The position numbers were made by a program, and so were the translations under genes. DNA of 64,000 nt from Escherichia coli (GTDB taxonomy: Bacteria > Pseudomonadota > Gammaproteobacteria > Enterobacterales > Enterobacteriaceae): the NCBI RefSeq assembly GCF_003334355.1, contig NZ_QOWP01000001.1. One strand, given 5' to 3'. Positions within the stretch are counted from its first letter, which is position 1; the number at the start of each line of letters is the position of its first letter. Below the pieces are notes generated by a model. The model worked only from the letters and a program-made list of their open reading frames with translations. It had not been told where the DNA came from and did not search any database. Below, one piece after another: positions 1,100 to 32,574 of the stretch.

Positions 1100-1442
1100 A
1101 ATCTTTCCTCGCTTAAAAAACAAGACGCCTTATCATAGCAGCCAGCCTCTTGATACCCAATCTCTTGCTTCTGGAAAAACGTGGTAATAGAGAAAGAGGT
1201 TAATTTCATTTGGCAAAGGGAAGTATCATCAGCAAAATATTCGCTGTAGAGGTATCGAACTTCCTGACTTTTTACCCTATTTCCCATCCTGATGCGTAAT
1301 AATCCCAATTTATCACATTGATTTTATCGCCACTCATATTGATACGTATCACTGCCCCTATTCAGAGTCCTGTTTCGTATCATATCTGTGTTTTTTTAAC
1401 GTCATCACACTTCCTACCTCCCCTAACGCTTATCGTCGTTTC

Positions 1443-1458
1443 TGGCGTAAATCTTGCC
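1443..1458 (+). promoter_or_regulatory. Candidate sigma54 (RpoN) -24/-12 promoter upstream of xdhA
   Basis: TGGCGTAAATCTTGCC: TGGC and TTGC at the canonical 11-nt offset of the sigma54 consensus TGGCACG-N4-TTGCW, about 95 bp upstream of the xdhA ATG at 1553; the sigma54 activator ygeV is encoded adjacent. Confidence 0.5.
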
Positions 1459-5215: not shown

Positions 5216-6994
5216 TTATGTGTTTAACAACTCATATTTCTTAATCTTGCGATAGAGCGTAGCAATGCCGATGCCCAGTTCATCAGCAACTTGCTTCTTG
5301 CTGTTATGACGTGAAAGCACCTCGCGGATCATTTGCTTTTCCATCTCCTCCAGCGCCGTGCCGCCCGCATCATCGAGTGACAGGTGCGCCTCACTGACCT
5401 CTGTTACATCACTTTGCTCCGTTGTGCCATTATTCAGCAGATTTGGCGGCAATAGCGTGCTGTCGATAACTTCACCTGAAGGAACCACGTTAACCAGATA
5501 TTCCATCAAATTGCTTAACTCGCGCAGGTTTCCGGGCCAACGATGCTTACGCAATATTTCGACGACATCGGGAGCAATGCCAGGATAAACCGATCCCAGA
5601 CGACGGGTATGCAGATGTAAAAAGTAATGCACCAATAGTTCAATATCTTCCTGACGTTCACGCAGCGGTGGCAGAGTTATCGGGATAACATTAAGTCGGT
5701 AGAAGAGATCTTCGCGGAATTTACCTTCGGCAATGAACTGGGCCAAATTCTGATTAGTTGCAGAAATGATGCGAATGTCGACTTGTATTGGGCTACTGGC
5801 ACCAATCGGCAGAATTTCACGCGCCTCAATAGCGCGCAGTAATTTAGCCTGCAACATTAATGGCATATCACCTATTTCATCGAGAAACAGCGTGCCCGTA
5901 TTCGCCGCCTGAATCAACCCTGTTTTACCGTTGGCAGAAGCGCCAGTAAATGCGCCTTTAACATAACCGAACAGTTCGCTTTCCAGAAGCTGCTCCGGAA
6001 TCGCGGCACAGTTGATAGCAATAAAGGGTTTATTCCGTCTTCCGCTCAACTTATGGATTGCTCGGGCGACGACTTCTTTACCCGTGCCGCTTTCACCAAC
6101 CACCATAACGCTGGATGGGCTGGGTGCAATACGGCTAATGAGTCGTTTTAATTGCCGCATAACACGGCACTCGCCAACCAATTGTTCAATATGTGGTTCA
6201 TCAGGTGCATTTGCTACAGAAAAACTGGTATGCGATTGGTGAAATGCCATTAAAAATAATTGTCGGCCCTGAATGTTATGCAATTGACCAATGATTAATT
6301 CACTTTTATCGTCCCACGAAACAATATGCTGCATATGTCCATGAGTAAAATTACTCTCAAATGTTAATGGTCTGAAACGGATAGGTTTCCCAATAATATT
6401 ATTTTGTACAACACCAAGTGTTTTTAAGGCAGTCTGATTAACAAACTGAACCCGACTTTCATCATCAACAACTAATACGCCCTGATCCATATTATCGATC
6501 ATGGTCGCGAATATTTTACTGATGTTATCTCCTGGCCCCTGATCCTCCAGAAGTTTCGAAACAAAAATGGTGGATATATGGCGAACATAATCAGAAAATT
6601 CGCGTAAATTATCACTGATATGCTCTTGTTGCTCGTGGGTAACGGCAATCAAACTTATCACCCCAACACAACGATCCTGTAAAATGACAGGCGTACCCAG
6701 AAATGCTTTTTCGCGGCAATTTTCTTTACTATCGCAACCTTCGCAAAGGGGATCGAAGCGAGACTGTGTCACAACTTTTTCAGTTTTCGTTTCCAGGACG
6801 TGGCGGAGCAGGCGTGAGTTGCCGCTCAACTGGCGACCAAGAAACTTCCCATACGCGCCCGTTCCGGCAACGCGACACAAGTTTTCATCAACGATCTCAA
6901 CCTCAAGCTGCAAAACGCTGGCAAGCATTCTGGCAAAACGCTGAATTGTCGGTTGAATTTGCATCAATACTGACTGCGTAGTAGCAAGCTCCAT
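5216..6994 (-). CDS. ygeV: Sigma54-dependent transcriptional activator (enhancer-binding protein) with N-terminal sensory region
   Basis: 592-aa ORF; AAA+ Walker A GESGTGKE, sigma54-contact GAFTGA motif (GYVKGAFTGA), C-terminal Fis-type HTH (ELGIGIATLYRKIKKY). Confidence 0.93.
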   Translation of the reverse strand: MELATTQSVLMQIQPTIQRFARMLASVLQLEVEIVDENLCRVAGTGAYGKFLGRQLSGNSRLLRHVLETKTEKVVTQSRFDPLCEGCDSKENCREKAFLGTPVILQDRCVGVISLIAVTHEQQEHISDNLREFSDYVRHISTIFVSKLLEDQGPGDNISKIFATMIDNMDQGVLVVDDESRVQFVNQTALKTLGVVQNNIIGKPIRFRPLTFESNFTHGHMQHIVSWDDKSELIIGQLHNIQGRQLFLMAFHQSHTSFSVANAPDEPHIEQLVGECRVMRQLKRLISRIAPSPSSVMVVGESGTGKEVVARAIHKLSGRRNKPFIAINCAAIPEQLLESELFGYVKGAFTGASANGKTGLIQAANTGTLFLDEIGDMPLMLQAKLLRAIEAREILPIGASSPIQVDIRIISATNQNLAQFIAEGKFREDLFYRLNVIPITLPPLRERQEDIELLVHYFLHLHTRRLGSVYPGIAPDVVEILRKHRWPGNLRELSNLMEYLVNVVPSGEVIDSTLLPPNLLNNGTTEQSDVTEVSEAHLSLDDAGGTALEEMEKQMIREVLSRHNSKKQVADELGIGIATLYRKIKKYELLNT

Positions 6995-7363
6995 AGCTTT
7001 ACCTTCCAGACTTACTTAAAAGTCGATCATTGAAGACGTTGATGGTTCACAGATCATGATGATATTAACTCAGGCGAAATTGGCTTTGATAAAAACATAA
7101 GATTTTTATCATTTTCTAATGAAATTATGGAAGAGATATCACATTTCTATATCAATATGAGAATTACGGCGGTGAGTTTATCAAACTGAAGAGAGATAGC
7201 CTGCCCCTTTATCTTATTTCTGATACTTAGCAGCAAATAAATAACGCGATAAAAAAAGCCAAACGTTTTCGTATTTTACAAACAACCAGAAGCTGGCATC
7301 AATTTGTGATCAACCCCACACATTATCCGTCAAATTAGTCGTTTGCAGCCGCGCGGATAATTC

Positions 7364-7378
7364 TGGCACACTTATTGT
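7364..7378 (+). promoter_or_regulatory. Candidate sigma54 promoter upstream of ygeW (imperfect -12 element)
   Basis: TGGCACACTTATTGT: perfect -24 TGGCAC, with TTGT rather than TTGC at the -12 position at the correct spacing; about 90 bp upstream of ygeW, divergent from ygeV. Confidence 0.35.
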
Positions 7379-7469
7379 TAGTCCCAGGTATAGCTGTGAA
7401 AACACCAATCACTTTGGCAAGTCACAGTGAAATAAACCACTTTGCCTGTCATTCCACTACCGGGACTTT

Positions 7470-8660
7470 ATGATGAAAACTGTTAATGAGCTGATTAAGG
7501 ATATCAATTCGCTGACCTCTCACCTTCACGAGAAAGATTTTTTGTTAACGTGGGAACAGACGCCAGATGAACTGAAACAAGTACTGGACGTTGCCGCAGC
7601 ATTAAAAGCACTGCGTGCTGAAAACATCTCAACCAAAGTCTTTAATAGTGGATTAGGTATTTCCGTATTCCGCGACAACTCCACCCGTACCCGCTTCTCT
7701 TATGCTTCCGCGCTTAACCTGCTCGGCCTTGCACAACAAGATCTCGACGAAGGCAAATCACAAATCGCTCACGGCGAAACCGTGCGTGAAACCGCCAATA
7801 TGATCTCCTTCTGCGCCGACGCTATTGGTATTCGCGACGATATGTATCTGGGCGCAGGCAACGCCTATATGCGTGAAGTTGGCGCTGCACTTGATGACGG
7901 TTACAAGCAGGGTGTACTGCCACAGCGTCCGGCTTTAGTGAACCTGCAATGCGATATTGACCACCCGACTCAGTCAATGGCTGACCTCGCGTGGTTACGT
8001 GAACACTTTGGTTCACTGGAAAACCTGAAAGGTAAAAAAATCGCCATGACCTGGGCCTACTCTCCAAGCTATGGCAAACCGCTCTCTGTACCACAAGGCA
8101 TCATCGGTCTGATGACTCGCTTCGGTATGGATGTCACCCTGGCCCATCCGGAAGGCTACGACCTGATCCCGGATGTGGTTGAAGTGGCGAAAAACAATGC
8201 TAAAGCCTCCGGTGGTAGCTTCCGTCAGGTCACCAGCATGGAAGAAGCCTTCAAAGACGCAGACATCGTTTATCCGAAGTCATGGGCACCTTACAAAGTG
8301 ATGGAAGAGCGTACTGAATTGCTGCGTGCGAACGATCACGAAGGCTTAAAAGCACTGGAAAAACAGTGTCTGGCACAGAACGCGCAACACAAAGACTGGC
8401 ATTGTACTGAAGAGATGATGGAACTGACCCGTGATGGCGAAGCCCTGTACATGCACTGCCTGCCAGCTGATATCAGCGGCGTATCCTGTAAAGAAGGTGA
8501 AGTGACTGAAGGCGTATTCGAAAAATACCGTATCGCTACCTACAAAGAAGCCAGCTGGAAGCCTTATATCATCGCCGCGATGATCCTGTCCCGTAAATAC
8601 GCCAAACCAGGTGCACTGCTCGAGCAACTGCTGAAAGAAGCGCAAGAACGCGTGAAATAA
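7470..8660 (+). CDS. ygeW: YgeW-type carbamoyltransferase (ATCase/OTCase superfamily), substrate uncertain
   Basis: 396-aa ORF; carbamoyl-phosphate-binding STRTR motif and HCLP motif of the transcarbamylase family. Confidence 0.9.
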   Translation: MMKTVNELIKDINSLTSHLHEKDFLLTWEQTPDELKQVLDVAAALKALRAENISTKVFNSGLGISVFRDNSTRTRFSYASALNLLGLAQQDLDEGKSQIAHGETVRETANMISFCADAIGIRDDMYLGAGNAYMREVGAALDDGYKQGVLPQRPALVNLQCDIDHPTQSMADLAWLREHFGSLENLKGKKIAMTWAYSPSYGKPLSVPQGIIGLMTRFGMDVTLAHPEGYDLIPDVVEVAKNNAKASGGSFRQVTSMEEAFKDADIVYPKSWAPYKVMEERTELLRANDHEGLKALEKQCLAQNAQHKDWHCTEEMMELTRDGEALYMHCLPADISGVSCKEGEVTEGVFEKYRIATYKEASWKPYIIAAMILSRKYAKPGALLEQLLKEAQERVK

Positions 8661-8717
8661 CCCCTCGGGCCGATCAGCTGGTCGGCCCTCTATTTCCAGA
8701 GGCCAAAAGGATAGGAT

Positions 8718-9914
8718 ATGTCCGTTTTCTCATTGAAGATTGATATCGCCGATAACAAATTTTTCAACGGCGAAACATCACCGCTCTTTTCGCAAAGCCA
8801 AGCCAAACTGGCGCGCCAGTTCCACCAGAAAATAGCTGGTTATCGCCCAACACCGCTTTGTGCGCTGGACGATCTCGCAAACCTTTTTGGTGTGAAGAAA
8901 ATTCTCGTCAAAGACGAATCAAAACGATTCGGTCTGAACGCCTTCAAAATGCTTGGCGGTGCGTACGCCATCGCTCAATTATTGTGTGAAAAATATCATC
9001 TTGATATCGAAACGCTGTCATTTGAGCACCTGAAAAATACCATCGGCGAAAAAATGACTTTCGCGACCACCACCGACGGCAACCACGGGCGCGGTGTGGC
9101 GTGGGCAGCACAGCAACTCGGACAGAATGCGGTGATTTACATGCCGAAAGGTTCTGCTCAGGAACGCGTTGACGCCATTCTGAACCTCGGTGCCGAGTGC
9201 ATCGTCACAGATATGAACTATGACGATACCGTTCGCCTGACCATGCAACACGCGCAGCAGCACGGCTGGGAAGTGGTACAGGACACGGCATGGGAAGGTT
9301 ACACCAAAATCCCAACCTGGATCATGCAAGGCTACGCAACCCTGGCAGATGAAGCCGTCGAGCAAATGCGTGAAATGGGCGTAACCCCGACGCACGTTCT
9401 GCTGCAAGCCGGTGTCGGAGCAATGGCCGGTGGTGTGCTGGGTTATCTGGTCGACGTCTACAGCCCGCAAAATCTGCACAGCATTATTGTTGAACCTGAC
9501 AAAGCTGACTGTATTTATCGCTCCGGCGTCAAAGGCGACATCGTCAACGTTGGCGGTGATATGGCCACCATCATGGCGGGCCTGGCCTGTGGCGAACCTA
9601 ACCCGCTGGGCTGGGAAATCCTACGTAACTGCGCCACCCAATTCATCTCCTGCCAGGACAGCGTTGCCGCATTAGGTATGCGCGTGCTGGGTAATCCGTA
9701 CGGCAACGACCCGCGCATCATCTCCGGTGAATCCGGCGCTGTCGGTTTGGGCGTTCTCGCAGCGGTTCATTATCACCCGCAACGTCAAAGCCTGATGGAA
9801 AAACTGGCGCTGAACAAAGATGCCGTAGTGCTGGTTATCAGTACTGAAGGCGACACCGACGTGAAGCACTACCGCGAAGTTGTCTGGGAAGGCAAACACG
9901 CTGTAGCACCTTAA
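8718..9914 (+). CDS. ygeX: Diaminopropionate ammonia-lyase (PLP-dependent)
   Basis: 398-aa ORF; PLP fold-type II sequence; recognised as E. coli YgeX/DpaL. Confidence 0.9.
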   Translation: MSVFSLKIDIADNKFFNGETSPLFSQSQAKLARQFHQKIAGYRPTPLCALDDLANLFGVKKILVKDESKRFGLNAFKMLGGAYAIAQLLCEKYHLDIETLSFEHLKNTIGEKMTFATTTDGNHGRGVAWAAQQLGQNAVIYMPKGSAQERVDAILNLGAECIVTDMNYDDTVRLTMQHAQQHGWEVVQDTAWEGYTKIPTWIMQGYATLADEAVEQMREMGVTPTHVLLQAGVGAMAGGVLGYLVDVYSPQNLHSIIVEPDKADCIYRSGVKGDIVNVGGDMATIMAGLACGEPNPLGWEILRNCATQFISCQDSVAALGMRVLGNPYGNDPRIISGESGAVGLGVLAAVHYHPQRQSLMEKLALNKDAVVLVISTEGDTDVKHYREVVWEGKHAVAP

Positions 9915-32139: not shown

Positions 32140-32574
32140 TTGCATCCCTTTCATTTAATGAGTTATGTCTTCTCAAATTTCGCGATGCAATAAACGGGCA
32201 TATATTAGGTAGCATGACCGTTTTAATTATAATTTTGCGACTGAGTTCAAATTATTGCCCCTCAAACTATGCCGCTTTCATTATTTCAACATTGCCGATC
32301 AAAAGAGCGCTATCCAGATAAAAACGATTAAATGCGAGAGTGCGACATGCCAGAATGATTAATGAAATATCAATATGAGAAAATTACAGATAATTCCATT
32401 GTCAGGTTCTCTTGTCATTTTCGTGGTTTAAGCACGATTATGTGATTGCCTCCGCAATTCCTGTCTCTAACTTCCCTTCCTCGCAAAAACTGGCACTCCA
32501 CGAGCATGTGTTTAGACAGTTTCATTAACGTAAACGGTTGCTTTTTACTCTGGCGGGCGAAAGGAGAAACACTG

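Follow-up and report, generated by a model that had tools for sequence, protein, structure and literature searches.

What drives transcription of ygeW in Escherichia coli, and which regulators act there? The question is of some interest, as the ygeW promoter controls entry to the anaerobic degradation of uric acid by gut E. coli, a pathway of medical interest in connection with gout and hyperuricaemia. The DNA considered here, called the window throughout, is a stretch of 64,000 nucleotides from contig NZ_QOWP01000001.1, and is 99.2% identical to MG1655 over 41 kb. An earlier note on the window, made from the sequence alone, had singled out TGGCACACTTATTGT, at 7364-7378 on the plus strand and 92 bp 5' of ygeW, as a second, weaker sigma-54-like promoter with a perfect -24 element and TTGT in place of TTGC at -12, lying in a 475-bp divergent spacer between ygeV and ygeW. 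The sequence and the annotation bear out the description of the motif and of the spacer that contains it. The spacer is also nearly that of MG1655, from which it differs at a single base, at 7341. We consider it very probable that 7363-7379 is the sigma-54 promoter of ygeW and of the downstream genes of uric acid and purine catabolism, and that it is worked by YgeV and CRP in the manner set out below. The features on which this reading draws are collected in Table 1.

The promoter itself is not a new finding, having already been published. Bonocora, Smith, Lapierre and Wade (2015, PLoS Genet, PMC4591121) found by ChIP-seq a sigma-54 site, OS30, which is the exact 17-mer CTGGCACACTTATTGTT. The DNA, the strand (+), the downstream gene and the distance of 80 bp from the predicted start to ygeW are all the same as here. 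OS30 was listed with a fold above threshold (FAT) of 3 and a PSSM score of 9.8, and had no EcoCyc entry at the time. In the genomic SELEX screen of Shimada 2021, the ygeV/ygeW spacer was bound in vitro by RpoN holoenzyme with an intensity 53% that of the top peak, or 55% when NtrC was present as well. From co-expression, Lamoureux 2023 placed xdhABC and ygeWXY in a YgeV module (iModulon) that also includes ygfK and ygfT; that paper cites Reitzer and Schneider 2001 for earlier-identified sigma-54 promoters at xdhABC and ygeWXY. What the present analysis adds to the mapped promoter, and what the 2015 study does not describe, is a set of candidate activator sites forming a candidate YgeV operator, a conserved CRP site, and a conserved base other than C at -12.

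Table 1. Coordinates of the promoter, regulator and predicted binding-site features in the window; site centres are relative to the respective predicted starts
Feature	Position	Strand	Basis and remarks
ygeV (isrR), adjacent sigma-54 activator gene	5216..6994	-	Pfam domains, intact motifs
Distal palindrome-like site GATCATGATGATA	7052..7064		Centre -332; 1 mismatch; 58-70 bp 5' of ygeV start codon
TG-N8-ATCACA element TGGAAGAGATATCACA	7128..7143		20.5 bp 5' of main palindrome
Main palindrome TATCAATATGAGA, proposed YgeV site	7150..7162		Centre -234; conservation
Second, partial palindrome TATCAAACTGAAG	7179..7191		Centre -205; 29 bp from main palindrome; 2 mismatches
CRP site TGTGATCAACCCCACA (predicted)	7305..7320		Centre -77.5 from predicted start; one mismatch to TGTGA-N6-TCACA
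Sigma-54 (RpoN) promoter of ygeW, CTGGCACACTTATTGTT	7363..7379	+	Matrix, ChIP-seq OS30, RpoN SELEX, conservation
Predicted transcription start of ygeW	7390	+	Bonocora rule; leader 80 nt
ygeW, carbamoyltransferase, first gene from promoter	7470..8660	+	Annotation
xdhA sigma-54 promoter (OS29)	1442..1458	+	ChIP, matrix; palindrome TATCACATTGATT at 1311-1323, centre -152
ygfK sigma-54 promoter (OS31)	17179..17195	+	ChIP, matrix; perfect palindrome TATCATAATGATA at 16998-17010, centre -202
ygfT sigma-54 promoter (OS32)	32186..32202	-	ChIP; palindrome TATCAATATGAGA at 32368-32380, centre -199

The promoter motif and its conservation

The ygeW promoter reads TGGCAC-N5-TTGT with exact spacing, its -24 GG lying at 7365-7366 and its -12 GT at 7377-7378, and the sole departure from the consensus TGGCAC-N5-TTGCW is the T for C at -12. 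The start in Table 1 is a prediction, following from the rule of Bonocora et al. that transcription begins 19 bp downstream of the motif centre. A search of the literature found neither a mapped ygeW start nor a report of rpoN- or ygeV-dependence of ygeW transcription. The portion of the Cappable-seq supplement (PMC4782308) that was searched has no entries covering the ygeW promoter region, and the searchable text of the Reg-Seq preprint, which has ygeW among its targets, gave no ygeW result by keyword.

How strong is the match? As a bare consensus string it has no significance alone, since the pattern TGGCAC-N5-TTGY occurs once in the window against an expectation of 0.59, and at least once in 43 of 100 shuffles. 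The weighted match, on the other hand, is significant. We scored the window with a sigma-54 weight matrix made from 38 ChIP-verified intergenic sites elsewhere in the genome, the four local sites being excluded. The 17-mer at 7363-7379 scores 16.09, where the training median is 16.7, and no other position on either strand of the 64 kb scores as high. The corresponding P of 1.8e-6 per position amounts to 0.23 expected sites in the window and to 0.0008 on the ygeW strand of the 475-bp spacer. The other sigma-54 promoters of the cluster, at xdhA, ygfK and ygfT, have poorer core motifs (11.94, 12.21 and 7.16); all three carry the consensus C at -12. By sequence, then, the promoter that had been called weaker outscores every other sigma-54 match in the window, and it is only in ChIP occupancy that it is low: FAT is 3 at ygeW versus 11 at xdhA and 26 at ygfK (PMC4591121).

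Other matrix matches may be noted briefly. The second-highest score in the window, 15.1, belongs to CTGTCGCGATTTTTGCA at 52058-52074 on the minus strand, which is without GG at -24. Within the spacer, a second TGGCAT at 7293-7309 (CTGGCATCAATTTGTGA) was rejected as a sigma-54 site, as it has the wrong spacing, a score of 2.6 and no conservation. No sigma-54 site in the spacer is directed at ygeV, the best minus-strand score there being 1.6.

Is the promoter kept in other bacteria? For comparison, 80 loci encoding YgeW homologues were fetched. The sigma-54 motif YTGGCAYNNTTATTGNT is found 74-120 bp 5' of ygeW in nearly all of the gammaproteobacterial loci, which include Enterobacterales, Aeromonas and Photobacterium, and likewise in one Rhodocyclaceae locus. 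Three loci have the motif further out, 149-237 bp from ygeW, and two of these three score weakly. In total about 38 gamma- and betaproteobacterial loci carry the motif with the exact -24/-12 spacing, while among the fetched loci none was seen in Riflebacteria, Bacteroidetes or other distant groups. When the spacers of 18 enterobacterial genera are aligned, the mean column identity is 45%, yet TGGCA (7364-7368) and TTATTG (7372-7377) are invariant, and position 7378 is T in 17 of the 18, the exception being the A of Serratia oryzae. Within E. coli, 5176 of 5426 complete genomes have the region, and 971 of 5178 genomes vary somewhere in 7355-7394. In the three variant strains that were aligned, the changes in the 17-mer are limited to the uninformative positions 7369-7371 (CACAC to CATAG or CATGT), with one more variant at 7385, just 3' of the 17-mer. 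The comparison of orthologous loci thus supports a promoter function. We note in passing that one spacer, from a record titled Citrobacter sp. MGH106 (L002), is nearly co-linear with that of E. coli; its YgeW and YgeV are 99% and 95% identical to those of the window, so that it stands nearer to the window than L004, the second Citrobacter locus, does. A mislabelled record or a transfer of the cluster may lie behind this.

One might think that the T at -12 is a defect. Across the loci, however, C never occupies this position, so that a base other than C is kept at every orthologous locus: nearly all Enterobacterales have T, most Photobacterium have G, and A is found in Aeromonas and a few others. 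The confirmed E. coli sigma-54 promoters of pspA (TTGGCACGCAAATTGTA) and pspG (TTGGCATGATTCTTGTA) also have TTGT at -12. They differ from ygeW in their activator, which is PspF, in their physiology and in their upstream sites.

The CRP site and the case for sigma-70

Between the upstream palindromes and the promoter lies a predicted CRP site that is conserved at an essentially fixed distance from the promoter. In the 18 genera its GTGA and C-CA vary little or not at all. Counted from the start of the 17-mer, its centre is at -50.5 or -51.5 in most enterics and at -49.5 in most Aeromonas loci, with three outliers at -40.5. The ygfK promoter likewise has a CRP site, a perfect one at 17101-17116, whose centre at -97.5 is 20 bp, or two helical turns, beyond that of ygeW. 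Matches to the IHF consensus WATCAANNNNTTR were sought 5' of each of the four sigma-54 promoters, and there are none.

CRP inhibits some sigma-54 promoters, such as glnAp2 and dctA. For ygeW we infer a positive action of CRP solely from the glucose repression of the pathway. Uric acid degradation is repressed by glucose in the wild type, according to a study in which the ygeV/ygeW spacer was replaced in an engineered probiotic, and the same study speaks of a 'native Crp-binding site' in that spacer (PMC12507026). The conserved arrangement of CRP site and sigma-54 promoter could explain this repression.

A conserved CRP site before a glucose-repressed pathway invites another reading, in which a sigma-70 promoter dependent on CRP serves ygeW, and the sigma-54 site is bound but unproductive, or else overlaps the sigma-70 promoter. 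For example, TATTGT at 7373-7378, which matches TATAAT at four of six positions, could serve as the -10 element, and CRP would then be centred near -72, a class I geometry. This reading can also appeal to the low ChIP occupancy of ygeW in spite of its good motif, and to the remark of Bonocora et al. (PMC4591121) that many sigma-54 binding sites may never fire. The DNA around the hexamer speaks against it. A -10 element at TATTGT leaves the invariant TGGCA, which would fall in the sigma-70 spacer region, unexplained, and it has no -35 partner; the DNA from the CRP site to TGGCA shows no conservation in the 18 genera. A scan for sigma-70 promoters gave nothing plausible for ygeW and showed no sigma-70-like site from the CRP site as far as the leader, its two matches in the region overlapping the start codon in one case and facing ygeV in the other. 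Of the hexamers at a class I or class II distance from CRP, the one usable candidate is TATTGT, which overlaps the -12 element; GATAAT at 7356-7361 is kept in close relatives only. Finally, the exact -24/-12 spacing is conserved in about 38 species, in most of which an intact activator gene adjoins. We regard transcription of ygeW from sigma-70 as improbable, and continue with the sigma-54 promoter.

YgeV and its candidate operator

A sigma-54 promoter needs an activator, and a cognate AAA+ activator with a GAFTGA loop appears, from its domains and motifs, to be available next to the ygeW promoter. YgeV matches the Pfam families PAS, Sigma54_activat (E 2e-70), AAA lid and HTH_8, with a weak GAF-like match as well, and it has no receiver domain. 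Its motifs are intact, with GAFTGA at residue 347, Walker A at 300 and Walker B at 369. The protein was renamed IsrR in a study of indole signalling that gave no binding site. The gene adjoins ygeW in most gammaproteobacterial loci, also where the gene order differs, as in Aeromonas. In three Aeromonas loci (L023, L024 and L037; 600-3000) the ygeV-like gene lies 5' of ygeW on the same strand and is not divergent, and the sigma-54 promoter, a CRP site (-49.5) and a perfect palindrome of the kind described below all lie between the two genes.

Where might YgeV bind? The earlier note had called for a search of the spacer for inverted-repeat activator sites, and that search turns up a main palindrome, a partial copy and a distal site. 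A generic inverted-repeat finder with a minimum length of 10 returned just a PurR-like palindrome; the 13-bp palindromes were missed because of this minimum length and their short arms. The main palindrome and the partial copy belong to a conserved block of 65 bp, 7124-7190, that also includes the TG-N8-ATCACA element. In the 18 genera the T, TCA and TGA-A of the main palindrome are invariant, and in most other species it is the perfect TATCA-N3-TGATA. In the partial palindrome, TATCA and the next T are invariant, and the following G is kept in at least 90%. The TG-N8-ATCACA element (TGGAAGAGATATCACA) has an invariant TG and TC-C and an intervening A kept in at least 90%, and in Photobacterium it stands at the same distance from the palindrome as in enterics. 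It could belong to the activator site, or else be a weak CRP-like site in addition to the first. At the distal site, a block ATGATAnTA is kept in about 70-90% of the 18 genera, and four other loci (L002, L012, L015 and L018) have sites of this type at the same offset, -304 to -307. The distal site is possibly a site of YgeV autoregulation or part of the ygeV promoter region.

The palindrome is not confined to ygeW. With at most one mismatch, TATCA-N3-TGATA has seven matches in the window, where 1.2 are expected, and five of the seven lie 5' of the four ChIP-verified sigma-54 promoters of the cluster, two at ygeW and one each at xdhA, ygfK and ygfT. When the four upstream regions are shuffled with dinucleotides preserved, the mean is 0.09 matches, and none of 2000 shuffles reaches five matches or has a match in all four regions. 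The ygfT palindrome is the identical 13-mer to the main palindrome of ygeW. At all four promoters the palindrome lies 150-235 bp upstream, and xdhA, ygfK and ygfT share with ygeW the same gene cluster and iModulon. One qualification concerns xdhA, where TTGATACGTATCAC at 1339-1352, 5' of the promoter, matches the FNR consensus TTGAT-N4-ATCAA at nine of ten positions (by eye). It overlaps a second palindrome-like site at xdhA, so that this copy could be FNR's and not YgeV's. A perfect palindrome, TATCATCTTGATA, one of just two perfect copies in the 64 kb, lies within the ygeX coding sequence at 8994-9006, and may be an intragenic YgeV site or a product of chance.

In other bacteria the palindrome goes with the promoter. 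It is present, usually in perfect form, in 34 of 36 loci with a sigma-54 promoter versus 2 of 42 without (Fisher 2.5e-17, though the loci are not phylogenetically independent), and the two exceptional promoter-negative loci are borderline sigma-54 matches. The two promoter-positive loci that lack it encode the most divergent YgeV-like proteins (52-54% identity) and have TCTCA-N3-TGAGA in its place. The distances from palindrome to promoter fall into 11 classes at steps of about 10 bp (R 0.74 at 10 bp, P ~0.004, again for loci that are not phylogenetically independent). Such phasing is expected if an activator bound upstream must face the polymerase. On the occurrence of the same palindrome before the xdhA, ygfK and ygfT promoters, we think that TATCA-N3-TGATA is probably the YgeV operator. 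A GATA-rich palindrome in AT-rich DNA could, however, be the site of some other factor. As a candidate operator, it is a testable lead for a regulator that is still uncharacterised.

Might a genuine sigma-54 promoter at ygeW answer to an activator other than YgeV, for instance NtrC in nitrogen limitation, with the palindrome bound by another factor? The sigma-54 activators of E. coli number about a dozen, a sigma-54 site not far away, within yqeC, responds to nitrogen status (PMC4591121), YgeV (IsrR) has also been linked to indole and to virulence-gene regulation, and YgeV as the palindrome-binding protein is our proposal from sequence comparison. Yet, in the part of Shimada 2021 used here, RpoN binding to the spacer is essentially the same with NtrC as without (each percentage given above being relative to a different top peak), and no NtrC site in the spacer is mentioned there. 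The adjacency of ygeV and ygeW in most gammaproteobacterial loci, the Aeromonas rearrangement included, the coincidence of the variant TCTCA-N3-TGAGA with the most divergent YgeV homologues, and the grouping of these operons in the YgeV iModulon (Lamoureux 2023) all favour YgeV. Control of ygeW by another activator seems to us quite improbable. A chance match without function, for which one could cite only the expected frequency of the bare consensus, is excluded by the binding seen in ChIP-seq and in SELEX, by the P value of the matrix score, and by the constancy of the motif both among genera and inside E. coli, and we give it negligible weight.

With YgeV as the favoured activator, what becomes of the suggestion that it would co-regulate both operons flanking the spacer? 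As a prediction it is accepted for xdhABC and ygeWXY, which the iModulon groups together, and the shared palindrome agrees with it. The geometry does not hold, as xdhABC is convergent with ygeV and its promoter is 5.5 kb away, and the set is larger than these two operons, as ygfK and ygfT belong to it too.

A proposed mechanism, related systems and minor features

The mechanism we propose runs as follows. Sigma-54 RNA polymerase would sit on the -24 GG and -12 GT as a closed, silent complex. Transcription would start near 7390 only when YgeV, bound to the TATCA-N3-TGATA palindromes some 205-235 bp upstream, contacts the polymerase by looping of the DNA and opens the promoter using ATP. CRP-cAMP at -77.5 would most likely aid by bending the intervening DNA, and such a role would render ygeW expression glucose-repressible. 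The palindrome shared with the xdhA, ygfK and ygfT promoters would join the whole cluster as one YgeV regulon. A fuller version of this reading, on which our own judgement is evenly balanced, would make TATCA-N3-TGATA an undescribed YgeV (IsrR) operator that defines an xdhA/ygeW/ygfK/ygfT regulon for purines and uric acid, would have CRP, at its fixed phase, replace IHF as the architectural co-activator, and would have the non-consensus -12 base (T, A or G) tune the locking of the closed complex.

Is there a precedent for such an arrangement? Lee, Newman and Keasling are said to have described one in 2005, in the prpBCDE promoter of E. coli and Salmonella, reportedly a sigma-54 catabolic promoter that is divergent from the gene for PrpR and subject to CRP-dependent catabolite repression. 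The likeness to ygeW and YgeV lies in the divergent activator gene, the ligand-sensing activator without a receiver domain, the catabolic operon and the CRP site in the spacer. The operator sequence and the effector are different, and at ygeW the action of CRP is the one proposed here.

Several minor features of the spacer and of the genes beyond it deserve mention. A PurR-box-like palindrome, AGCCAAACGTTTTCGT, with three mismatches to ACGCAAACGTTTGCGT, lies at 7257-7272, between the upstream palindromes and the CRP site. It is kept in E. coli, Citrobacter, Atlantibacter and Klebsiella indica only, and the sole other match of this quality in the window (at most three mismatches) is at 32528-32543, in the ygfT/uacT spacer. 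A computational study of 2015 placed ygeW in a putative PurR regulon. A search of 6900-7600 against Rfam found no RNA family at E up to 1, and the predicted fold of the 80-nt ygeW leader is no more stable than that of shuffled sequence (z -1.2). Many of the 18 genera keep one leader segment, GCCTGTCATTCCAC at 7444-7457, about 10 bp 5' of the ribosome binding site; one of its columns is invariant and two others are kept in at least 90%.

Downstream, GC-rich terminator-like hairpins are found at 8667-8688, just after ygeW, at 11201-11220, after ygeY and followed by TTTTT, and at 13788-13813, in the gap where yqeA and yqeB converge. In the literature ygeWXY is treated as an operon (Lamoureux 2023). 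In view of the hairpins, the run ygeW-ygeX-ygeY-hyuA-yqeA may be divided among two or more transcription units, or may be subject to attenuation.
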